Shown here: positions 223 through 10,009 of the stretch, in pieces
Position numbering within the stretch: position 1 is the first letter of the stretch
How the letters are laid out: the number at the start of each line of letters is the position of its first letter
Source of the DNA: Candidatus Eiseniibacteriota bacterium
GTDB taxonomy: Bacteria > Eisenbacteria > RBG-16-71-46 > CAZAMP01
Length of the DNA stretch: 10,009 nt
Assembly: GCA_965224245.1 (NCBI GenBank)
Contig: CBDCYW010000018.1
Location: 1-10,009, forward strand
Direction of reading: 5' to 3'
Position numbers and translations under genes: made by a program
Notes under the pieces: generated by a model
Seen by the model: the letters and a program-made list of their open reading frames with translations, nothing else
The model's database searches: none
Told to the model about the DNA's origin: nothing

Positions 223-483
223 TCAGCGCTTCGGCGGTCTCCCCGGCCTCGGCCGAACGCCGTGGTCCGGGAACGGCTCGCCGGAGTTGTGCTTCCGTTC
301 GAGCCGCGCGCACTCCCGCGCGAGCGCCTCCGCTGCGAACCCTGAAATGGTAGCGAACTCGGGCGGACCCTGGAGCGAAATCACCGTCCGCCGGACGCGC
401 TCGATGAGATCCCGGTCGAGTTGAGCGGTGAACCGCTCCCTGGCCGGCCGGGCCGGCTCGGCTACTCTCTTCCCCTTCGCCAT
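223..483 (-). CDS. Small ribbon-helix-helix DNA-binding protein, ParB C-terminal (pCXC100-type)-like, 86 aa
   Basis: Likely start is the internal ATG (MAKGKR...) at 483-481, overlapping the recombinase stop as TGATG. RFTAQLDRDLIERVRRTV...ISGFAAEALARECARLERKHNSGEPFP...PGRP resembles the strand-helix-helix plus 'LE..yN.G.pFp...GRp' pattern of RHH centromere-binding proteins. Confidence 0.7.
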   Translation of the reverse strand: MAKGKRVAEPARPARERFTAQLDRDLIERVRRTVISLQGPPEFATISGFAAEALARECARLERKHNSGEPFPDHGVRPRPGRPPKR

Positions 484-1421
484 CAGGACGCCTCCCCGGC
501 CACGAGCGCTGCGACGGCCCCCCCCAGATCGGTCCGGTTGTCGTCGTAGATGGCCACGGTCCGCACGTCGCGATGGCGGGAAAAGACCGCGACGTTCCTG
601 ACGTTTCCCCCGGTGACGTCGAGCGCGGCCGTGATCGCGGCATGCCGGAGTCCGTGAGGCCGAACCTTGCCGAGCCCGGCGGCCTTGGCCACGCGGGCCA
701 CGAGCGCCGCAACGCTCTTCCCCGAAAGCCGCATGCCCCGGCTCGCGCGATCGAGGGCGATGAACGCGGCCCCCTCGGCCTCGTGTACGTCGAACCACGC
801 GGCGAGCGCGGCGATGGTCGGAGCGGGGAGCGTGAGGGTCTGGCGCTCGGTGCGGCCCTTGCCGAGCACGGCCACGGTGCCCGCTTCGAGGTCGATATCG
901 GCGCGATCGAGGCGCGTCACCTCGGCGCGGCGCAGCCCGAGGTCGAACAGCAAGCGCAGGATAGCCCGGTCACGACGCACGAGCGGCCTGTCGGACATCC
1001 CATCCAGGGCTGTGAGCATCGCCCGGAAGCCCGAGACGCCCGGTCCGCGCGTGTCTCGGTACTTCTGAGACTTCACGCTCTCGACGTCGAGCGCCCACGA
1101 GACCACGCCCACCGTGCGGGCAAGCTTGACGACCGAGCGGAGCGCTGCGAGCCGGCGGTTGATTGTCGCCGGCGAGAGCCCAGTCTCGATCATGTGAGCG
1201 CGCCAAGCGTGCGCAACTGCGTTCGCCGCACCGTGCCCACGGGAGAGAAGCGCGCCGACGGCCGCGTCCGGATCGGGAGCGTCGACGAACCGGGCGAAAT
1301 CGAGCAAGTCTGAATGATAGGCGCGGCGGGTCGCCTTGGTGCGTCCGGCCAGGAACGCGGCCACGAGCGTATCGCGGGACGGGAGTGCAAGAGCGATATC
1401 GGTGACGGTGGTAAGCGACAT
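483..1421 (-). CDS. Tyrosine recombinase (XerC/phage integrase family), 312 aa
   Basis: Full catalytic set: RDRAILRLLFDLGLRRAEV (R), VLGKG (K), HGLRH (H-x-x-R), SRH (H), AIYD (Y). N-terminal core-binding domain (TRRAYHSDL...SPATINRRLAALRS). SD AAAGGGG 6 nt before ATG. Confidence 0.95.
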   Translation of the reverse strand: MSLTTVTDIALALPSRDTLVAAFLAGRTKATRRAYHSDLLDFARFVDAPDPDAAVGALLSRGHGAANAVAHAWRAHMIETGLSPATINRRLAALRSVVKLARTVGVVSWALDVESVKSQKYRDTRGPGVSGFRAMLTALDGMSDRPLVRRDRAILRLLFDLGLRRAEVTRLDRADIDLEAGTVAVLGKGRTERQTLTLPAPTIAALAAWFDVHEAEGAAFIALDRASRGMRLSGKSVAALVARVAKAAGLGKVRPHGLRHAAITAALDVTGGNVRNVAVFSRHRDVRTVAIYDDNRTDLGGAVAALVAGEAS

Positions 1422-1493
1422 CGGGAACCCCTTTGTTGGCGACCCTAGGGGAATACTAGCTATAATACTCCCATTAGGTCAAATCGGTTCCCG
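1422..1493. repeat. Nested imperfect inverted repeat upstream of the recombinase (candidate recombination site or operator)
   Basis: Outer arms CGGGAACC (1422-1429) / GGTTCCCG (1486-1493). Inner 18-bp arms GACCCTAGGGGAATACTA (1441-1458) / TAATACTCCCATTAGGTC (1463-1480) match at 13/18. Confidence 0.65.
1453..1482 (-). promoter_or_regulatory. Putative sigma70 promoter of the recombinase-RHH operon
   Basis: Minus strand TTGACC (1482-1477), 18-nt spacer, TAGTAT (1458-1453), about 30 nt before the ATG. Confidence 0.5.
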
Positions 1494-1501
1494 TTTGTTT
1501 C

Positions 1502-1865
1502 TCAATCGATGCCGGCGAGCCCCGAAGGCGCCGAACCCGCTTCCGCCGCTTCCCCGGACAGTAGGGCCGCCAGTTCAAGACGATCCGCTGCCAGACGATC
1601 GGGTGAAGAAGCGTCAAGCGCGTTTCGGTCGTACTCGATGACGACATGGGCTATCCCTGTCTGGTGAACCTGCTGGGACGGCCGGCCGTAGGCCGTATCG
1701 CGCAACAGTGCGATTGCCGGAAGCGCTCCCGGTAACGGCAGCCCCGTCTGTGGGTGCGTCGCACTAGCCAGCCGGACGAGGTTTTCGGGCGATCCGCTGG
1801 GCGTACGTGTGGCCGTCTTCGGTCACTTCGTCGAGCGCGGCGCGCATGGCCTCAGAGAGTGTCAT
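1502..1865 (-). pseudogene. Frameshifted terminase small subunit-like / DUF5681-like protein (about 120 aa if repaired)
   Basis: ATG at 1865 overlaps the HTH gene stop (ATGA). It reads MTLSEAMRAALDEVTEDGHTYAQRIAR then stops early. Removing one base from the A4 run (T at 1782-1785 on +) continues NLVRLAS...PAIALLRDTAYGRPSQQV..., joining the 1502-1705 ORF and giving the 'A..IA..LV..A...AI..L.D...G+P.Q' pattern. Confidence 0.55.
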
Positions 1866-2095
1866 GGAGTCGGCCTCCCAGCGTCCGTGCCCAGATCACC
1901 ATTGAACGCGCGGGCCATATCGATGATCGCCGAGACGAATGATCGGGACACTCGCCAGTCCCCGCGCGGCCCGGTCGGCTGGAAACCTAGTAGCACTCCC
2001 CGCTCACACAGGCGTCGCACGTATCGCTGGGACACGCCGAGGAGTTCGGCCACTTCTCGTGTCGTGAGCGTCTCGGTCTTGAGCGTTCGCTTCAT
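1862..2095 (-). CDS. Excisionase-like helix-turn-helix protein (HTH_17/MerR-like), 77 aa
   Basis: LTTREVAELLGVSQRYVRRLCERGVL...GDWRV is a typical Xis-type winged HTH; SD AGGGG upstream. Confidence 0.88.
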   Translation of the reverse strand: MKRTLKTETLTTREVAELLGVSQRYVRRLCERGVLLGFQPTGPRGDWRVSRSFVSAIIDMARAFNGDLGTDAGRPTP

Positions 2096-2125
2096 CGTCG
2101 GTCCCCTGTTGGGTACATAGGCAAA

Positions 2126-2167
2126 AGACTACTAAACGGAGACAATCGGAGCAATCGGAACAATCGG
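2126..2167 (-). promoter_or_regulatory. Putative promoter of the Xis-like gene overlapped by three 9-bp-period repeats
   Basis: CAATCGG at 2143, 2152 and 2161. Minus strand -35 TTGCTC (2154-2149), 17-nt spacer, -10 TAGTCT (2131-2126). Confidence 0.55.
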
Positions 2168-2212
2168 CACCGTGAATGCAGGCAATAGCAGGGCGCGGCG
2201 GTCGGACTACAG

Positions 2213-3085
2213 TCACGCTGGCCTTGCGAACGCCTTCGTCAATAGCTCCACGAGGACGTCTTTCTGCCTCATCGTCTCGCCCTTCGCGAGACGAATTCTG
2301 TAGCGTCCCCAACGGGAGTCGTAGTCCATCACATCCAGGCCAGCGTCGTCCAGACGCGCCTGCGTCTCATCCGAGCGTTCCAGCCGTACCTCCAGCCGAA
2401 GCCAGTCTTTCTTCGGGCGGAAAACGACGAAGTTGTTCGGATGTCCGTTCTTCGCGAGACCAATGTAGAACTTGTTGTACTTCAGCTCTAGGTCGGGGTC
2501 GAGGCCACGGACGACTTCGAGCATCTCGTCGGTCATTGCCAAGGTGTGCTTGCTCGCGCGCCCTTCCCAGTAGGCCCGGTCCGTCACCGCTTGGACTTCC
2601 TCATCATCATCCACGAGGCCGAGCTTCAACTCATCGAGCACCGTCGAGCAGATGAGCGAAACGGTGTCGCCCAGCCGGATCGCGCTCAGTTGGATGGCGA
2701 CGAGCGGGATTGCGCCATTGAAAAGACCGATGACGTTGAGGAAGCGGCTCGTGATGTCCTCAGCCACGATCACTGCCGTGTGATCGTATTGAGGGTAGCG
2801 CTTCCGTTCCAGGTCCCAGTATTCGATCGTACGAATAATGTGCGACTCGTCCGTCTTGCCGAGTTGAACCTCGACCTCGTAGCGCTTGTCCGTTTCTGCG
2901 TCTTGAAGGAGAAGATCAAGCCGACCAGCTCGCGGCTGCGGCCTCTCTCGGTCCTTGAGAACCAGATCTCCAAGACCGAGCAGCCCCGGATCTTCACCGA
3001 TCCGGTCTTGAAGCCATCTCTCATCTAGCTCCGGATGAGCCTTCAACCAAATGCGTTCTGGTTTCGAGTACTTCAACGGGGCCAT
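2213..3085 (-). CDS. NucS/DUF91-like PD-(D/E)xK nuclease domain with probable DUF5655-like C-terminal domain, 290 aa
   Basis: E.WLQ..I..DP..LGLG.L...RE....GRLDLLL......YEVEVQLG.TDESHIIRTIEYW is a NucS-like fold with an E-x-Q variant motif. C-terminal LKYNKFYIGL...NFVVFRPKK region. SD GGAGG 5 nt before ATG. Confidence 0.8.
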   Translation of the reverse strand: MAPLKYSKPERIWLKAHPELDERWLQDRIGEDPGLLGLGDLVLKDRERPQPRAGRLDLLLQDAETDKRYEVEVQLGKTDESHIIRTIEYWDLERKRYPQYDHTAVIVAEDITSRFLNVIGLFNGAIPLVAIQLSAIRLGDTVSLICSTVLDELKLGLVDDDEEVQAVTDRAYWEGRASKHTLAMTDEMLEVVRGLDPDLELKYNKFYIGLAKNGHPNNFVVFRPKKDWLRLEVRLERSDETQARLDDAGLDVMDYDSRWGRYRIRLAKGETMRQKDVLVELLTKAFARPA

Positions 3086-3309
3086 GCGATCCTCCGATCC
3101 TGTCTACACTGTCTTGGGGCTCCCGTAACACGACAAACAAATCGACGGCCTAGAACAGTTACCACGCACTTCGGGTAGGTAACACAACCCCTCAAGCTGA
3201 TGGCACGAGTCTCGTCCACGAGAAGCGCGACAAATCGAAGGTCAAGCGACCAATCGGCACAATCGCAATCCCCGTCGGGGCAGCGCCCAAAACCGAACTA
3301 CTGGCCGCG

Positions 3310-4104
3310 CTATTGGGCAGAAGGCTCAGCGGTCGACGGCCAGAGACGGTCCGCCCTCGCGTCCATTGGATGGTACTGCGCAACCCATATCTCATCGAAG
3401 CTCGGCCGAGTCTCGATTAGTCCTGTTTTGATGCGAGCCAAAACGCCATCGTCGTAGTCAGAATTGTCACAGTGCACTAGCAGCACTACGCCGGACGCTG
3501 GACCATAGCTTTCGATCTTCTTGCGTATCGTCGCAAGAACTCGAACTTCGGTGCGGACGACGCCTTTGCCGCCGCACCCAAACGACCAGGTGACGTCGTT
3601 CGGCAGAGTGAGATCACGCAACCCGTAGACTCGAAGCTGCGAAAACGCGGGCCGGAGCAGCCCATCGATAAACCTTGCATCTTCGGTGTCGTGTAGGAGC
3701 TTGGCTGACATAGTCTGTGGTGTCGCCGTACGTTGTATTGCGAATTGCGTGGCTTCGCAAAGCCGTGCCTTTGCTGTTTGCTTGCCTTTGGAACCCGGCA
3801 GTTCTAGCAGGCGGAACTGAATGTAGTGCCCACCGTGGCCCATCTCGGCAAGATCGCGCTCGATGGCACTGCGGCAATCGTCGAGAAAGGCTCTCGCCCG
3901 CCGCTCTCGTTCATCGCCAGACTCCGCTCGCACGTGCTGAACTTGAAGTGATCTCCCGTCATCCGACGCGACTTCCCAATCCGCGATGTGATTGCGGATT
4001 TCAGTGACGCTGTCCGCTCGAAAGCTCGTGCTGTGAAGTGCGTTGTAGCGCGGCAGGAAGACCGCCAACACTCGATCACGCACGTCTGCCGTGGGTTCTG
4101 CCAA
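3310..4104 (-). CDS. Hypothetical protein with possible restriction-endonuclease-like fold, 264 aa; 5' end hit by IS3
   Basis: The first part of the 388-aa track ORF lies inside the IS and is spurious. Plausible TTG start at 4104 (MAEPTADV...). ADWEVASDDGRSLQVQHVRA resembles a D-x(n)-(E/Q)xx catalytic strand pair; C-terminal IRKKIESY...VLLVH...FDEIWV...LWP. Confidence 0.6.
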   Translation of the reverse strand: MAEPTADVRDRVLAVFLPRYNALHSTSFRADSVTEIRNHIADWEVASDDGRSLQVQHVRAESGDERERRARAFLDDCRSAIERDLAEMGHGGHYIQFRLLELPGSKGKQTAKARLCEATQFAIQRTATPQTMSAKLLHDTEDARFIDGLLRPAFSQLRVYGLRDLTLPNDVTWSFGCGGKGVVRTEVRVLATIRKKIESYGPASGVVLLVHCDNSDYDDGVLARIKTGLIETRPSFDEIWVAQYHPMDARADRLWPSTAEPSAQ

Positions 4105-4169
4105 GGCAACCTTGGAGTTGACCCGGTTTCGTGGACACCGAACCACTACAATGTGGCCAGGAGGTCCCG

Positions 4170-4484
4170 ATGCCAAGATCCCGTCGATCGTACCCGCCAG
4201 AGTTCCGCGAGCAGATGGTCGCACTCGTCCGATCGGGGCGGAGTCCCGAGTCGCTGGCGGAGGAGTATGAGCCCTCCGCGGCGGCCATCCGGAACTGGGC
4301 CAAGCAGGCCGACCTCGACGAGGGTCGTCGCCACGACGGCCTGACGTCCGAGGAGCGCGAAGAGCTCTCTCGCTTGCGCCGCGAGAACCGTGAGCTTCGC
4401 GAAGAGCGAGAGATCCTAAAAAAAGCCGCGGCCTGGTTCGCTCGGGAGACCGAGTCGAACCCGTCGAAGCGTTCACGTTCGTGA
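4170..4484 (+). CDS. IS3-family transposase OrfA (HTH + leucine zipper), 104 aa
   Basis: AGGAGG then ATG at 4170: MPRSRRSYPPEFREQMV...IRNWAKQ...ELSRLRRENRELREEREILKKAAAWFARE. Confidence 0.95.
   Translation: MPRSRRSYPPEFREQMVALVRSGRSPESLAEEYEPSAAAIRNWAKQADLDEGRRHDGLTSEEREELSRLRRENRELREEREILKKAAAWFARETESNPSKRSRS
4418..4425 (+). promoter_or_regulatory. Programmed -1 ribosomal frameshift site (A7G) for the OrfAB fusion
   Basis: CTA AAA AAA GCC in the OrfA frame. The -1 frame is open from here into OrfB (SRGLVRSGDRVEPVEAFTFVKANR). Standard IS3 mechanism. Confidence 0.85.
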
Positions 4485-5332
4485 AGGCGAACCGGGCCGA
4501 TCATGCGGTGGCCACGATGTGTCGGGTGCTGGAAGTCTCCACCAGCGGGTACTACGCGTGGAAGAAGCGGTCGCCGAGTCGTCGGTCGCTCGAAGATCAA
4601 GAACTCCTGGCGGAGATCGAGGCCGTTCACACGATGTCGAAAGGAACCTACGGCGTTCCCCGCATCCATGCCGAGCTCACCGACAATGGTCGTGCCGTGG
4701 GCCGCAAGCGCATCCGTCGACTGATGCTGGTGAAGGGCCTGCGAGGCGTGAGCCGGCGGGCACGACGTCGGACGACGGTGCGCGGCGACGGGTCGCCATC
4801 GCTCGATCTGGTGCAGCGCAGGTTCGAGGCGACCGGACCGGACGAGCTCTGGGTGGCGGACATCACGTACATCCCCACGTGGGCCGGCTTCCTGTTCCTG
4901 GCCGTGGTTCTCGACGCCTGGAGTCGCCGGATCGTGGGCTGGGCGATGGCTAACCATCTCCGCACCGAACTCGTGCTCGAGGCGCTCGAAATGGCGCTTC
5001 ACCGGCGGCGGCCAGAGAACGTGATCCATCACTCCGATCAGGGGTGTCAGTACACGTCCTACGCCTTCGGGCGGCGGTGCCGCGAGGCCGGCGTTCGGCC
5101 GTCGATGGGATCGGTCGGGGACTGCTACGACAACGCCATGTGTGAGAGCTTCTTTGCCACGCTGGAGTGTGAGCTCCTGGAGCGGACGACCTTCCGCAAC
5201 CGGACCGATGCGCGCCGCGAGCTCTTCCAGTTCATCGAGGGGTGGTACAATCGACATCGTCGACACTCGGCGCTCGGGTATCGCTCACCGTCACGCTTCG
5301 AACGGGAGAGCCGGGAGGCGATCCCTAGTTGA
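4481..5332 (+). CDS. IS3-family transposase OrfB (DDE integrase core), 283 aa
   Basis: WVADITY (D), HHSDQGCQYTS (D), DNAMCESFFATL (E), YN..RRHSALGY.SP; GTGA overlap with the orfA stop. Confidence 0.97.
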   Translation: MKANRADHAVATMCRVLEVSTSGYYAWKKRSPSRRSLEDQELLAEIEAVHTMSKGTYGVPRIHAELTDNGRAVGRKRIRRLMLVKGLRGVSRRARRRTTVRGDGSPSLDLVQRRFEATGPDELWVADITYIPTWAGFLFLAVVLDAWSRRIVGWAMANHLRTELVLEALEMALHRRRPENVIHHSDQGCQYTSYAFGRRCREAGVRPSMGSVGDCYDNAMCESFFATLECELLERTTFRNRTDARRELFQFIEGWYNRHRRHSALGYRSPSRFERESREAIPS

Positions 5333-5396
5333 AAACCGTCCACGGAAGCGGGTCAACTCCAACCTCGCCTTCCTCAGTCTGGTGTTCCGACAACGG

Positions 5397-6062
5397 CTAA
5401 GGAGCCAGCGTGACCTTGGCCGTCGCCTCGAAGCCATCATCCGCTCGAAGCGTCGCCAGGTACACGCCCGGAGCGACAAGCCCGCCGTCGGCGTCGCGTC
5501 CGTCCCACGTCACGGCGAAATGATCGACGGCGACGGTGCCGACTCGGATCTCTCGCACGAGCCGGCCGTCGGTCGAGTAGATCGAGACGGCCGCGTCTCG
5601 GAGCGCCTGACCGGTCTCGAAGTCGATCCGTGTGGATTGTGCGAACGGGTTGGGAACCGCTAGGCCACGTTCACCGCTCGCCGGTGGCGACGATGGGACG
5701 CCAATCGGATAACCCGGATAGGCGCCCATGTTTGTCCAGTCCCCGGGGCCATACGTGCCGATCCTCCAACCGACTCCATCGGTCGTCAGAATGGCCAGCA
5801 TCGTCCAGTACTCCATCTCAGAGACGGCGACAGGCCATCCGTATCCGGGTATGTCGAGTTCGATCCAACCCGAGTACAACTGCTGCCAGATGCGTCCATT
5901 CAGGTCGAGGTACACCGGCCAATCCTCTTGGCCCGGTATGTGGGACTTGGCAACCAGCCCCGAGGGACTCTGCAAATCGACTCGGCCAGCGATCGACGTG
6001 GCCGGTGTCACCAGGGCGAGCACGCCCACGGCAACCGCGAGAGACCTGGCGGACCAGCGCAT
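5397..6062 (-). CDS. Secreted protein with C-terminal FlgD-Ig / T9SS-sorting-like domain, 221 aa
   Basis: Signal peptide MRWSARSLAVAVGVLALVTPATSIA. C-terminal PNPF...T.I.F...VSIY..DGRLVR...VTWDGRD..G..VAPGVY...L...KV motif. SD AAAGGGG. Confidence 0.85.
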   Translation of the reverse strand: MRWSARSLAVAVGVLALVTPATSIAGRVDLQSPSGLVAKSHIPGQEDWPVYLDLNGRIWQQLYSGWIELDIPGYGWPVAVSEMEYWTMLAILTTDGVGWRIGTYGPGDWTNMGAYPGYPIGVPSSPPASGERGLAVPNPFAQSTRIDFETGQALRDAAVSIYSTDGRLVREIRVGTVAVDHFAVTWDGRDADGGLVAPGVYLATLRADDGFEATAKVTLAP

Positions 6063-6258
6063 CGCTTCCCCTTTGGTTTGGAGTGGTCCGGTGAGTCTAC
6101 CGCCGATCCCCTGCCAGGCCCGTTCAAACTAGCGGGCCGGCGCGGGACGCCGAGAGCGCATAAACGCGGGCCGATCCGACCTACGGGTCACGTTGACCCA
6201 CGAACGTCGCTCTGAGCGCCCGGCGCGCATGCTGACAGCCATCGCCGTGGGCCCCCGA

Positions 6259-6441
6259 CTAAGTCGGTGGAGGTGTGACCTTGGCATCCGCCGACCGGTG
6301 TAGCGCCGCCTGCGCGAGTCGCGCGTTTATGGCGAACCAGCATGCCAGCCCCACAAGGGTCGGGCCTGCGGTGGCGGCGCTCATCGACACCAACCCGCCG
6401 AACGCGAACAGTACGCCGATTGCTGCTAGCAGTACGACCAT
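6259..6441 (-). CDS. Small two-helix membrane protein, 60 aa
   Basis: GGAGG 4 nt before ATG; two hydrophobic segments (VVLLAAIGVLFAFGGLVSM and PTLVGLACWFAINA). Confidence 0.65.
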   Translation of the reverse strand: MVVLLAAIGVLFAFGGLVSMSAATAGPTLVGLACWFAINARLAQAALHRSADAKVTPPPT

Positions 6442-6592
6442 TGGTCCTCCGGGGGTTCTTCGCCGTGGCGCTTAAGAACGTCGTAACAGTTCATCAATGA
6501 GACGGGGTAGGCACCCTGGCGCGCCTGCTGGTGGCTCGGGGACGCCAATCACGCCGCCGGGCGGCCCGCCCCCCTAAGCGTGACAGTGACAA

Positions 6593-6610
6593 GAGCCCCC
6601 CTTTGGGGCT
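6593..6610 (-). terminator. Possible weak terminator hairpin after the 6673-7380 gene
   Basis: Minus strand AGCCCC-AAAGGG-GGGCT stem followed only by CTTGT, a poor U-tract. Confidence 0.3.
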
Positions 6611-6672
6611 GGCCGCGCCCTGCGGGGGAGGCCCCACAGCGCGAAGGAAACTGCCACTCCAGGGGAGATCCT

Positions 6673-7380
6673 TCAGTCGGCGGAGTAGATATTCCTGATC
6701 GAGCCCCAGCTACCCTCCTTGACTGGGACGGCACAGAGATAGCCGCACGTCGCCACGCCCATACCACCGCCGATCGTCGCGTCACCGATGCCCATCGCCT
6801 GACGGCATATCCGGGAGATCGACTCGTCGCAGGCAGTTGCATGCGCCTGGCCGATGCGTGGGTCTTCGACAACGCGGATGAGTCCCGCCGAGCCTTGGGT
6901 GAGGATGAAGAGGCCGACCTTCGTGACGCCATCAGGGTTGTCCGTGACGAGGTAGCACCCGCCGGGCCACCTCACATCGTTGCCTGTGCCGGTGTCCGGC
7001 CAGACGCCATCAATTGGGTCGGCCTGGGGGCTCTCGGTGCCGCCGGTGCAGAGAAACCAAGTCATGTCAACGGTGGAGTCGTACTCGATTCCAAACTGAA
7101 GACCACCGATGCCGCCGGGAGCGCCAGGGCCTGAGCCATCCGGAACGCCGCCAATGACGACCCAGGCGAAGTTCGGCTCGAACTCACCCACGTCGATCCC
7201 GTTGGGATTGAGAACCCAGCACCTCAGAGCGCCGTCCGACACGGTTCCTTCGGTGCACCCGAGATACGACGGCTCCGTGAAGTGCAGATCCAGCGTATAC
7301 GGGAACTCATCAGCAGCCATGATGGGCGTGGGCAGGGTGAGCACGCCAACGGTGATCCAGACGATAGACTTGGAACTCAT
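6673..7380 (-). CDS. Secreted Cys/Gly-rich protein with C-terminal 'PV...SWG.I+..Y' motif, 235 aa
   Basis: ATG 7380 with GGAG 8 nt upstream is preferred over GTG 7389. Signal peptide MSSKSIVWITVGVLTLPTPIMA; GIGGLQFGIEY core; several Cys; ends CAVPVKEGSWGSIRNIYSAD. Confidence 0.8.
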   Translation of the reverse strand: MSSKSIVWITVGVLTLPTPIMAADEFPYTLDLHFTEPSYLGCTEGTVSDGALRCWVLNPNGIDVGEFEPNFAWVVIGGVPDGSGPGAPGGIGGLQFGIEYDSTVDMTWFLCTGGTESPQADPIDGVWPDTGTGNDVRWPGGCYLVTDNPDGVTKVGLFILTQGSAGLIRVVEDPRIGQAHATACDESISRICRQAMGIGDATIGGGMGVATCGYLCAVPVKEGSWGSIRNIYSAD

Positions 7381-7416
7381 CGACCTCACTCCAATGTTTT
7401 GTTGAACTCCCGCAGA

Positions 7417-7676
7417 GTCTATCGCGCGGCCACAATAGAAGGCTAGACCGACCTGCCTAGCCTTCGGTCTAGTATCCTCGACCTCTGTAACTCTTTATAA
7501 TATATATATTTATATAGAAGGAAGACAGGAGGACTAGACGATAGACGTGGGGCAAGGGCGGATGCAACGAGTGGGCGGGAGAGGGTCTACTGTGGTCTAG
7601 TGTCTAGTCGGGGACCCATCTCGTTCAGGCGCATAGCGTTAGAGGCTAGACGGTCGCTGTCTAGCAGTTGGTCTAC
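7417..7676. other. Candidate replication origin (iterons + A/T-rich unwinding element)
   Basis: GTCTA or TAGAC at 7417, 7444, 7467, 7535, 7542, 7585, 7595, 7602, 7647, 7659, 7671. Pure A/T run TTTATAATATATATATTTATATA at 7494-7516. Non-coding and directly downstream of the replication gene. Confidence 0.75.
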
Positions 7677-7699
7677 TCCGGCGCCCGACGGGCTCGGCG

Positions 7700-9548
7700 T
7701 TACCTCGTCGGCCAGAACCTCACCCCGCGCCGGATACCGTGTCCGCCGGCACCTCGCCAGTCCGGCAGGCCGGCCTTGACTTCGCCCGCCTCGATTTCGA
7801 CATCGAGGATCGGTGGCAGAGTCCGCGCGTCAGCCCATTTCAGCCCCTGATAGAGCGCCGTTGCTCCGGCCCCTGGGTTTCGCCCCAGGAAACCCCGTAG
7901 TGACGCGCGACGCTTCGCCGTCAAGTCGCGCGGATCGGCTGTCCCGATCAGCCGATCCGCGTGTTCGAGGAATAGGTCTCGGATGAACGAGACGAGCTTG
8001 CACGCGGTTCGGACGTGCTCTCGGTCGATCGTGAACGCGTTGGGATCGGGCATGTCGGGGTACTCGCTGGCAATCGCGAATAGGATCGCGATCTTCCACA
8101 CGTAGCTTTCCATGCGTCCAAAGATGGCACCGAAAAGCTCGGGGTTGGCGCTGCGCGCCAGGCGTGCGTGGTGCTCGATCCGCCACGCCTCGAAGTGCTC
8201 GCCAACCTCTTTCGTCATCCTCCAAACGCACGGCTTCGTCATCCCACTCGTGAGCGTGAACAACTCAGCCGCGTAGCTTTCGAGTCGATCTTCGGCGGCC
8301 TGATCCGGCTCGGGCAGGCTCCATAGCTCGGGCTCGGGTTGTCGCGGGGTCGGCAGCACGTACAGGAACCGATCTGCAAACCCCTGCCCGAAGTGCGCTT
8401 CGGTCAAGCTGTCGCGAAACCACCCGAATGGCGCATTCCCGATGATCGACACGAGCGAGTCATCGACGCTGACGGCATCGGTTCCTGTTCGCCGGCCGAT
8501 CGGTCCACCGTCGAACGCGCTCGCAAGTTCCTGTTGAAGTCCCGCGTGTGAGTCGCGTTGGAGCACTTTAAACAGACGTGTGAGTTCATCCTGGACCCAG
8601 AAGCCCGACGTTGTTTGGCGCCTCGACAAGCGACTTGATGAACCCGACGGGTGAGATATCGCCAGGAAGCACCCTGCCCGGTGCCGCTCGGCGGACCATT
8701 CGCGACGCGCGACCGGTCGCTGTGCTCTTGTGGTAGTTCGTCGATGGCGCGACGATCGCGATCCAGAGTGACGGAAAAACCGGGCGTCGCCCGTACCACC
8801 CAACGCCAAACGCCCGCCCTAAGCACGCCGACAGCAGCGTCAGCGCGGCCATGAGATGGAACATCTTCGGCGCGGCGGTCGTGCCCTCGATCGTGCGCAT
8901 GTACTCCCCCACAAACGCGGCCGTGGGGTAGTCGGTGAACTCCCGCGTAAACGCGTCGAGTCGCGCCACGGTGACCACGCCACGCGGAGCGGTCGTGCCT
9001 CCTTTGGCCGCCTCAACTGCGTCGAGGGCTATGCGCCACCTGTCGAGTTCGACGTCTATGATCGCGCCGACATCGACGTTTCCGGGACAGACGCTCGACA
9101 ATCGGTCCAAAGTCTCGGCCGTGTCCCGCGTGAGCAATCGAAGTGCGTGCGCGTCGAGCACGCGACGCCATGCGGCTGAAACCTGTCCGCGCTGAATGTC
9201 GTCGGATTGCTCACTGTACGCTTCCAAGAGCTGCACGACGAAGCCACCGGGATTGTCGCGATGCCCGGTGACGATCTCGTCACGGTCGACGCGATCTCGG
9301 ATAGACTGCCAGTTACCGACGGTCCCCCCAGCGTCTCGAATTGAACGCGCCGCAATCACGACCGCTCGTGGCGCGGCCGTCGCGAATAGATCCTCGGTGA
9401 TCGGGTGATTGTCGGTGATCCTGGCCAGCTTCTCGGGATAGAACGCGAACGCGATGGCGACGCGCCACTCCGAGGGTTCGTCTCGGAAGGTCTCGACGCT
9501 GCCGTGCGGCGCGGCCGTCGCGCGTTGCGCGATCACTTGGGGTGTCAT
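7700..9548 (-). pseudogene. DnaB-N-like + DUF3987/YfjI-family P-loop replication protein, split by a +1 frameshift (about 615 aa if repaired)
   Basis: 5' ORF: DnaB-N-like SEWRVAIAF..YPE...ITEDLF...RAVVIAARSI..., then APKMFHLMAALTLLSACLG...LWIAIVAPSTNYHKST (Walker A-like). 3' ORF: QDEL...AFDG...RRT...VSIIGN...GFADRFLYV. Deleting one base near 8596-8602 gives GLLVQDE (Walker B). Start ATG 9548 (ATGA-coupled) or 9557. Confidence 0.8.
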
Positions 9549-9643
9549 AGCTTCCATGCCGCGCCCAGGACCGCCAGCTCTGCGTCCAGAGATCGCGGCG
9601 GCAGGCCAGCATGCACCTCAACGCCCGTCACGTTGCTGAGCAT
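9545..9643 (-). CDS. 32-aa mini-ORF with DnaB N-terminal helix motif (not in the ORF track)
   Basis: GGAG 5 nt before ATG 9643: MLSNVTGVEVHAGLPPRSLDAELAVLGAAWKL*. Its TGA overlaps ATG 9548 of the replication gene. Confidence 0.5.
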   Translation of the reverse strand: MLSNVTGVEVHAGLPPRSLDAELAVLGAAWKL

Positions 9644-9842
9644 CCCGACTCCGCTCGCGCAAGTATCGAAAGAACAGGCCCTCATCGACGAGGTAACGGC
9701 GGCCGAACGGGACCAAAGCGCCCGAGGCGATGAGAGCCCCTTTCTCGTTGAACAGGAGGTGATAGAGCGACACAGGGCACCGGCCCGATCGCCGAAACTC
9801 GGCGAGGGGTATGAGCGGCTCGCGACTCGACCTGGTTTCCAT
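9618..9842 (-). CDS. Small AlpA/excisionase-like DNA-binding protein, 74 aa
   Basis: Strong SD GGAGG. LIPLAEF...SLYHLLF...LIASGAL..FGRRYLVDE..F..YL fits a winged-HTH pattern. Located just upstream of the replication gene. Confidence 0.7.
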   Translation of the reverse strand: METRSSREPLIPLAEFRRSGRCPVSLYHLLFNEKGALIASGALVPFGRRYLVDEGLFFRYLRERSRDAQQRDGR

Positions 9843-9925
9843 GGATGTATCCTCCGTTAGCGTTCGTGGGCGAAGTTCTGAGTCTTCGCACGAAACCTAC
9901 GGAAGCTCGCCTACTGTTTCCGAAC

Positions 9926-9958
9926 GCGGGTGAAGCGGGTTTGGCGGGTTTGGCGGGT
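9926..9958. repeat. Four GCGGGT direct repeats with 9-bp period upstream of the AlpA-like gene
   Basis: GCGGGT at 9926, 9935, 9944 and 9953. Confidence 0.85.
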
Positions 9959-10009
9959 AATACCGTCCCTCAAGGGACGCGGTCAGGGCGGGGATACCGG
10001 GTAGATACT

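Follow-up and report, generated by a model that had tools for sequence, protein, structure and literature searches.

The window analyzed here, a 10,009-bp stretch of DNA (GC 0.635) from a member of Candidatus Eiseniibacteriota, is an entire contig of its assembly, referred to below as C19. We propose, with a probability of about 0.5, that C19 is a small mobile element functioning as a phage satellite, in the manner of those phage-inducible chromosomal islands (PICIs) that carry their own small terminase subunit (TerS), and that phages of the type represented by C17, another contig of the same assembly, are its candidate helpers. This reading is drawn from gene content, since C19 combines a helicase and an origin-like region, a recombination module and cargo genes for secreted, host-like proteins, shows no virion or transfer genes in the scans described below, and carries homologues of the pair of genes that precede the large terminase (TerL) gene of C17. 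A sequence-only reading of the same DNA had already called it a PICI-like satellite; that proposal is partly supported here, although through evidence other than that originally cited, and the gene order of PICIs is not matched.

The gene connecting C19 to a phage lies at 1502-1865 on the minus strand. In this copy it is frameshifted at two places, at an A4 run (1782-1785) and near 1521, the latter relative to P0153, an intact 127-aa form encoded on a 5,640-bp contig of another assembly. Neither the 1502-1786 product nor P0153 matches any Pfam, NCBIfam, PHROG or PADLOC family, and no DUF5681 or TerS similarity was seen at E values up to 10. Relatives were sought through the word index of a 5.8-billion-protein index: searching with the product gave two matches at E<=0.01 among 88 candidates, and a profile gave three among 8,000. 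The sole relatives found are P0153 (the gene's own intact form, 99% identical), P0154, which is encoded on C17, and P0155. P0153 and P0154 are 36% identical (E 5e-16) and have the block ALLRDTAYGRPxQ in common. The family was found in 1 of the 61 genomes searched, that of C19 itself, and no locus of it was found in metagenome contigs or viral contigs. The sequence-only reading had labeled the product TerS-like/DUF5681; no model matches this label, and what speaks for it is homology to the gene directly upstream of the C17 TerL gene. That reading had also made its case depend on TerS/DUF5681 or DUF3987 similarity in two of the products. The DUF3987 similarity was found (see below), and the TerS/DUF5681 models remained unmatched.

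C17 is a tailed phage genome of 38,411 bp, with the same GC content as C19 (0.635, compared to 0.691 for the chromosome), which counts in favor of the satellite reading. Its 462-aa TerL is recognized by phrog_2 (3.6e-30) and Terminase_6C, and genes for a portal, a protease, a major head protein, a tape measure protein and a tail fibre follow downstream. The P0154 gene (C17 24752-25189) is located directly upstream of the TerL gene, which it overlaps, and is itself preceded by an HTH_17 gene (1.1e-07) whose product and the HTH_17 protein of C19 share 36% identity over 58 aa. With HTH_17 and P0153 matching HTH_17 and P0154, both genes in front of terL in C17 have homologues on C19, and their order is conserved. 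In C19 itself, the TerS-like gene precedes the recombinase gene and not a TerL gene. The C17 TerL is distantly related to the TerLs of Thermus phages, and the annotated TerS of P74-26 occupies the same slot as P0154.

The two ends of C17 join in frame into a 321-aa open reading frame (ORF): the ORF leaving the right end finds 115 in-frame codons at the left end, whereas the other frames stop after 31 and 25. Because this ORF continues in frame across the ends, C17 is probably a complete genome, either circular or circularly permuted. The idea that C19 is the missing lysogeny arm of C17 was rejected, as the ends of C17 join in frame by themselves. No integrase match was seen among the 51 distinct C17 ORFs scanned against PHROGs or Pfam. 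In C17 the portal is fused to a head-morphogenesis domain and the tail fibre is 1,722 aa long; further genes encode RusA, RecT, a DNA methyltransferase and an O-like replication protein.

The third relative, P0155, is a 142-aa protein encoded on an 8,134-bp contig of another assembly. Its N-terminal part equals that of P0154 in 77 of 77 aligned columns, whereas its C-terminal part is closer to P0153 (31/64 identities) than that of P0154 is (21/64). Because P0155 joins the N-terminus of P0154 to a C-terminus nearer to P0153, the alignments suggest domain exchange within the P0153 family, in which the two halves re-assort. If C19 is a satellite, the 127-aa protein would be an analogue of the small terminase; its diverged N-terminal part would recognize the element's own DNA, and docking onto the helper TerL would fall to its C-terminal part. 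Following helper infection, the element would replicate from its own origin and would then be packaged by headful, with about four copies per C17-sized head given the sizes of 38.4 and 10.0 kb.

We scanned 16 ORFs of C19 against Pfam, of which nine matched a family and seven did not, and 11 ORFs against PHROGs. Capsid, tail and conjugation families were matched in neither scan, in agreement with what had been claimed from the sequence, and the same holds for holin, portal and connector genes; no lysis family appeared in the PHROG scan. Besides a match of the HTH_17 protein to phrog_57, the PHROG families present are integrase, excisionase/DNA-binding and helicase/primase only. The backbone genes are all on the minus strand, so the co-oriented series that had been described is real.

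The replicase gene of this series (7700-9557, minus strand) encodes a helicase of the DUF3987 family. A +1 frameshift near 8604-8616 breaks it into two ORFs, 8586-9557 and 7700-8809 (Pfam 3.7e-22 and 6.3e-05). The junction of the two frames is at "...EAPNNVG" and "GFWVQDELT...", and the break is explained by a single additional base within or close to the run 8604-8606. When the gene is read through by one four-letter step, it yields a 618-aa protein that matches DUF3987 at 3.8e-31. The P-loop, APSTNYHKST, agrees with the pattern APSxxx[HR]KS[ST] of distant relatives, and Walker B retains its DE; a first impression that the P-loop is degenerate was dropped once this pattern had been seen. The helicase is the sole DUF3987 gene of the genome. 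A match to PHROG 3022, "DNA primase" (4e-11), extends over the helicase part only, and the first 210 residues show no primase, DnaB-N or other domain in hidden Markov model searches at E values up to 5. Thus, the DUF3987 similarity reported earlier is confirmed, although in two frameshifted ORFs and not in a single intact gene; the absence of a recognizable primase domain holds as far as these searches reach, and the DnaB-N label is unsupported.

Close relatives of the helicase were not found. Locus searches of genome and viral contigs with its C-terminal half gave nothing, and a word-index search with the read-through protein gave none at E<=0.001 among 8,000 candidates. An exhaustive search of 1.84 billion representatives returned 266 proteins at E<=0.001, of which only the helicase itself falls below 1e-30; the nearest other protein stands at 3.4e-11 with 28% identity. 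Judged by these searches, the helicase is an outlier within its family. Because the locus and protein searches gave no close relatives, homologous backbones with different cargo, which the sequence-only reading had proposed to compare, could not be collected.

Directly downstream of the DUF3987 gene, in a 300-bp intergenic region, lies an origin-like region (7443-7664). All seven CTAGAC sites of the contig fall within it, in both orientations, flanking an AT-rich core at 7484-7523. In shuffled versions of the contig, CTAGAC occurs at a mean of 2.68 sites, and seven or more were seen in 1 of 200 shuffles. The core is the most AT-rich 40-mer of the contig, with a GC content of 0.175 compared to 0.375 for the next lowest. 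By its layout, the array with its core is origin-like and of the iteron type, in keeping with the earlier claim of an iteron origin. SaPI origins have the same arrangement of repeats around an AT core.

The recombination module consists of three minus-strand genes. The first, at 483-1421, encodes a 312-aa Xer-like tyrosine recombinase (Phage_integrase, PF00589, 1.1e-20; phrog_1 integrase, 1.7e-24), as had been predicted; it is XerC-like at 3.6e-32, yet far under the XerC and XerD equivalog cut-offs. It is followed by an 86-aa ribbon-helix-helix-type (RHH) gene at 223-483, whose first base is also the final one of the recombinase stop (a 1-nt overlap) and which matches the C-terminal domain of the centromere-binding ParB family (CB_ParB_C, Pfam 1.2e-06). 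The third is the HTH_17/excisionase-family DNA-binding gene at 1862-2095 (HTH_17, PF12728, 9.5e-10), whose stop codon overlaps the start of the next gene (ATGA). Its product exceeds the cut-off of the NCBIfam "excise" family (TIGR01764; 35.2 bits vs 28.8), in keeping with the Xis-like function assigned from the sequence, and also matches PHROG 57, "terminase small subunit" (7.8e-07), with a sub-threshold MerR match; no match to PF05930 (AlpA) was seen.

Paralogues of this module are found in the host chromosome, in a 10.9-kb low-GC island (1,407,068-1,417,994) bounded by the 3' end of a tRNA-Arg(CCG) gene and a 15/16-nt direct copy of it. The island holds paralogues of the RHH gene, which adjoins the recombinase gene there as well, of the recombinase (85% identical as protein; 83% at the nucleotide level over 1,028 nt), of HTH_17 (45% identical over 75 aa), and of two further C19 genes described below, orf60 and the FlgD_ig gene. 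As helicase, the island has an AAA_25 protein; a second and broken integrase lies beside the far repeat, and neither a TerS-like gene nor a CTAGAC cluster is present; the island may be two tandem elements or a mosaic. Because it has the recombinase, RHH and HTH_17 paralogues but no TerS-like gene, this comparison shows that the recombination module, as far as its genes tell, travels in integrated host elements and is not by itself tied to phages.

These observations also bear on a different interpretation, namely that C19 is an integrative or replicative island or a small plasmid with another mode of mobility or none, in which the HTH_17 gene and the gene for the 127-aa protein, both of which also occur in phages, act in DNA binding or regulation rather than in packaging. 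Set against iteron plasmids, in which a rep gene and adjacent iterons go with partition or conjugation functions, C19 has a helicase, an iteron repeat array and an RHH of the centromere-binding family, along with an Xer-like recombinase; the recombinase-RHH-HTH_17 module recurs in the tRNA-Arg island with an AAA_25 helicase and no TerS-like gene; and the 127-aa protein matches no TerS model. However, no partition ATPase (ParA), relaxase or coupling-protein family was matched among the scanned ORFs, every relative found for the 127-aa protein either occupies the slot in front of a phage TerL or derives from it, and the two-gene synteny with a phage is hard to explain through regulation alone. 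We regard an island or plasmid of this kind as the leading rival to the satellite reading, plausible in outline but doubtful.

Between the origin-like region and the HTH_17 gene lies the cargo, again on the minus strand. A 238-aa protein (6673-7389) has no Pfam match and belongs to a host-encoded family, with 19 chromosomal tblastn matches (best 61% identical). It is followed by orf60 (6259-6441), a small hydrophobic 60-aa ORF without a family match that is 50% identical to an ORF of the chromosomal island, and by a gene with a FlgD_ig/type IX secretion system (T9SS)-type C-terminal domain (5397-6062; Pfam FlgD_ig 4e-09). The latter scores 21.6 bits against TIGR04183, slightly below the cut-off of 23, and has 139 tblastn matches genome-wide, the best of them (59% identical) in the chromosomal island. 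The cargo proteins of 5397-7389 thus come from large host families, and C19 holds additional copies of surface-protein genes. Nearest to the HTH_17 gene, a 290-aa DUF5655 protein (2213-3085; Pfam DUF5655 1.4e-07) has weak matches to the PADLOC candidate-defence families PDC-S18 (9.4e-05) and PDC-S11, and may be defence cargo. Searches of PDB sequences with this protein and with the helicase gave nothing meaningful.

The predicted cargo slot is therefore real, although it is not as described, because it also contains a 1,248-bp IS3-family insertion sequence (IS) at 4113-5360 on the plus strand (orfA 4131-4484, orfB 4481-5332, target duplication ACCT). A 99.8% identical copy is present on another small contig of the assembly, C11 (40656-41911), and copies of about 77% identity are on the chromosome and on contig C23. 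The 34-nt inverted repeats at 4103-4136 and 5338-5371 were considered as the IS ends and rejected as too long, since the C11 copy sets the ends at 4113 and 5360. The IS interrupts a cargo ORF (3310-4108, minus strand) that has no Pfam, NCBIfam or PADLOC match. With the IS removed, this ORF would begin two codons past the FlgD_ig stop, and the IS therefore cuts it about 12 codons after its likely start. The longer ORF 3310-4476 was discarded as a gene, being partly an antisense artefact of the IS.

The first gene of the series, orf74 (9618-9842, minus strand), has a GGAGG 8 nt upstream of its ATG. It had been called AlpA-like, a label that finds no support: there is no Pfam, NCBIfam, PHROG or PADLOC match at E values up to 5, and hhalign against the local HTH_17 proteins gives a probability of 0.1. 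An AlphaFold2 model (pLDDT 60) has the secondary structure strand-helix-helix-hairpin-helix, and the best hit of a fold search with it, the TorI excisionase, is not significant (E 1.4, TM 0.27).

The state of this copy was compared with sequences from X1, a public run that was available as contigs only. This one run, at a depth of about 2, holds 83% of the sampled C19 words, and as far as can be told it is not a virus-particle sample. Its contigs equal C19 exactly over 4427-10009, and a short-read contig over 8597-10009 is identical with the helicase frameshift included. Over 1960-4112 there are 10 differences. One contig joins 4106 to 5360 and is an exact empty site of the IS, at a depth of 2 and with a shorter side of 24 letters. 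Over 771-1963 only a variant contig is found, with 43 substitutions relative to C19 as well as 5 indels, among them the loss of the letter at 1782, which restores the frame of the TerS-like gene. Among the differences listed within 813-1311, 17 of 23 fall on third codon positions of the recombinase gene. Because the differences are mostly of this kind, the variant is, on codon-position grounds, a real allele and not read error. A mostly third-position burst of substitutions at 813-933 suggests recombination inside the recombinase gene. Positions 1-770 have no X1 cover, and such a gap between contigs proves nothing.

Three genes of this copy are broken: the helicase, the TerS-like gene and the cargo ORF cut by the IS. 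All three lesions look recent, and public data hold both an intact TerS-like allele and an IS-free form. The frameshifts may be assembly errors; counting against this, C17 has uninterrupted ORFs of up to 1,722 codons. A more severe possibility is that C19 is a decayed remnant, whether of a former satellite or of a piece of prophage, which is immobile and was assembled apart through strain heterogeneity. The helicase frameshift, the two frameshifts of the TerS-like gene relative to P0153, the IS in a cargo gene and the allelic variation of the recombinase region in X1 would all fit such a remnant. In contrast, the motifs of the helicase are retained, the existence of an intact TerS-like allele and of an IS-free form implies that the damage is recent and copy-specific, and a TerS-like gene that is followed by a recombinase gene and not by a TerL gene, together with non-coding ends, is unlike a random prophage fragment. 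That C19 is such a remnant is considered quite unlikely.

C19 and C17 belong to an assembly of 6.94 Mb that is 97.4% complete with 1.0% contamination and is composed of a single 6.45-Mb contig (C1, the chromosome, GC 0.691) and 26 small contigs of lower GC. The RecA protein encoded on C1 is 76, 75 and 72% identical to those of named Candidatus Eisenbacteria metagenome-assembled genomes, which fits the uncultured FCB-group host that had been suggested. Could C19 and C17 come from different organisms that were binned together, with the similarity of the small genes reflecting nothing other than a shared phage gene pool? The 26 small contigs of lower GC would be in line with such an artefact, as would the lack of a nucleotide match between C17 and the chromosome. 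However, C19 has close chromosomal paralogues, as detected by tblastn for the recombinase, RHH, HTH_17, orf60 and cargo genes, with the recombinase match extending to the nucleotide level as given above; the 99.8% identical IS is common to C19 and C11; and the P0153/P0154 family was found in that one genome of the 61. A binning artefact is accordingly judged very unlikely.

Both ends of C19 are non-coding. The left end (1-222) is outside the cover of the X1 contigs. In the right end (9843-10009), GCGGGTTTG occurs 2.7 times in tandem (9935-9958), and the stretch 9910-9953 forms a 44-nt inverted repeat of 73% complementarity with 1522-1565, at the 3' end of the TerS-like gene. These repeats could be recombinase sites, packaging sites or the product of chance. 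The exact 44-nt end pattern of C19 matched no other genome. No tRNA genes and no Rfam families were found on C19, and a scan for promoters and terminators was at chance level, with one promoter-like site upstream of the recombinase gene. No terminal overlap was found in C19 or in any of the small contigs. C19 without the IS measures 8.76 kb. The window being the whole contig, there are no flanks beyond 10009 of the kind that the sequence-only reading had proposed to inspect.

Several of the results weigh against the satellite reading. P0153 and P0154 show no TerS similarity in Pfam, PHROGs, PDB sequences or named phages, the P0153 family shows none by hhalign to the TerS of P74-26, the Riverbug TerS or the Riverbug gene upstream of terL, and the fold model of P0153 (pLDDT 54) is too poor for a fold search, so that a TerS role would be assigned to these proteins from gene position alone. 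The HTH_17 protein of C19 is closer to the copy in the TerS-less island (45%) than to that of C17 (36%). No head or packaging PHROG other than phrog_57, through HTH_17, was matched on C19 and no capsid-size gene was seen, and the gene order is unlike that of PICIs. C17 has no nucleotide match to the chromosome, and what links C17, C19 and the host is membership of one assembly only. Two backbone genes, for the helicase and the TerS-like protein, are frameshifted, and with the helicase frameshift also present in short-read contigs, this copy may be dead. The integration site is likewise elusive: among 56 tRNA and tmRNA genes with 30-nt flanks, the longest exact match to C19 is 14 nt and falls inside the IS, the ends of C19 have no common terminal repeat, and the chromosome offers no attB candidate above chance. 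In X1, one contig extends 88 nt past 10009 and no end-to-start joint is listed, so that a simple circle is not established. Att repeats at a tRNA gene, an empty site of the whole element and a circular junction in the X1 contigs, all suggested earlier as checks, were thus looked for and not found.

Described satellite families provide a further frame for the satellite reading. In its mode of operation, as read here, C19 works like the PICIs and the PICMIs, and it is a member of neither. The description of the SatelliteFinder model gives five core components for PICIs, with one component lacking in Type B PICIs, and describes how TerS-carrying PICIs redirect the terminase of the helper (PMC10085698). 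C19 has the integrase outright and the regulator, the replicase and terS in part (the last by phage-gene homology only), and no capsid-morphogenesis gene was found. Like TerS-carrying PICIs of the SaPI type, it measures about 10 kb and carries an integrase-family recombinase, a small gene of the HTH_17/AlpA class and a replicase of its own, behind which repeats around an AT core make up an origin-like region. It likewise has a slot for accessory genes and a small gene akin to the one at the TerS position of the helper, with no tail, holin or portal genes in the scanned ORFs. In contrast to PICIs, C19 has a Xer-like recombinase that is co-oriented with all else and adjoins the TerS-like gene, and its replicase consists of a DUF3987 helicase alone, with no recognizable primase. 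Its TerS-like protein is matched by none of the TerS profiles, and it has neither a capsid-morphogenesis gene nor a known att site. The host phylum also differs, as more than 99.9% of the PICIs found are in Proteobacteria and Firmicutes according to the same source (PMC10085698).

PICMIs of Vibrionaceae are marked by an integrase (PF00589), AlpA (PF05930/PF12728) and a DUF3987/DUF5906 primase, with fis mandatory, and a small gene overlapping int is needed for their excision (PMC10803314). C19 resembles them in having PF00589, PF12728 and PF13148, in the small gene that overlaps its integrase gene (the RHH gene, by 1 nt; a functional analogy only), and in the mode proposed for it, as concatemers in full-size helper heads (PMC10803314). 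PICMIs are inserted next to fis, and C19 has no fis-type gene; PICMIs also have no terS, measure about 6 kb and have virulent vibriophages as helpers (PMC10803314). VEIMEs (marine virion-encapsidated integrative mobile elements) are satellites of uncultured bacteria (including Flavobacteria and Verrucomicrobia) that were recognized by genomics, as C19 was, and some carry small-terminase homologues nearest to those of co-occurring phages; they were defined as concatemers in virus particles, whereas C19 is known from its genes alone (PMC9618062). Outside the satellites, 5'-3' helicase activity has been demonstrated for a DUF3987 protein that a flavobacterial mobile element encodes (PMC11724360). 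This AgaPP/AgaPH system of Flavobacteriia belongs to a tRNA-associated integrative element, and its helicase has Walker A and B motifs like that of C19; it differs in its PriCT domain, its partner primase-polymerase and the Argonaute of the element, and no phage link is described for such elements (PMC11724360).

A stronger version of the proposal is that C19 and C17 form a natural satellite-helper pair, in which the HTH_17 and TerS-like genes are the sole hijacking cassette, the TerS family is unrelated in sequence to those described, and P0155 records an exchange of the TerL-docking half between phage and satellite. We offer this tentatively, as a possibility that falls well short of even odds. 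If it is true, the choice of the DNA to be packaged and the choice of the packaging motor would re-assort independently. A literature search found no paper naming Eisenbacteria together with phage satellites. Both gene transfer and defence against phages are influenced by satellites; nearly all of those studied are from Proteobacteria and Firmicutes, and for environmental satellites the helpers are rarely known. Here, one assembly contains both a candidate satellite and a candidate helper, connected by a private family of genes at the terminase position, which makes them a testable pair. This putative pairing falls in a phylum without cultured members, and the family at the TerS position is new.

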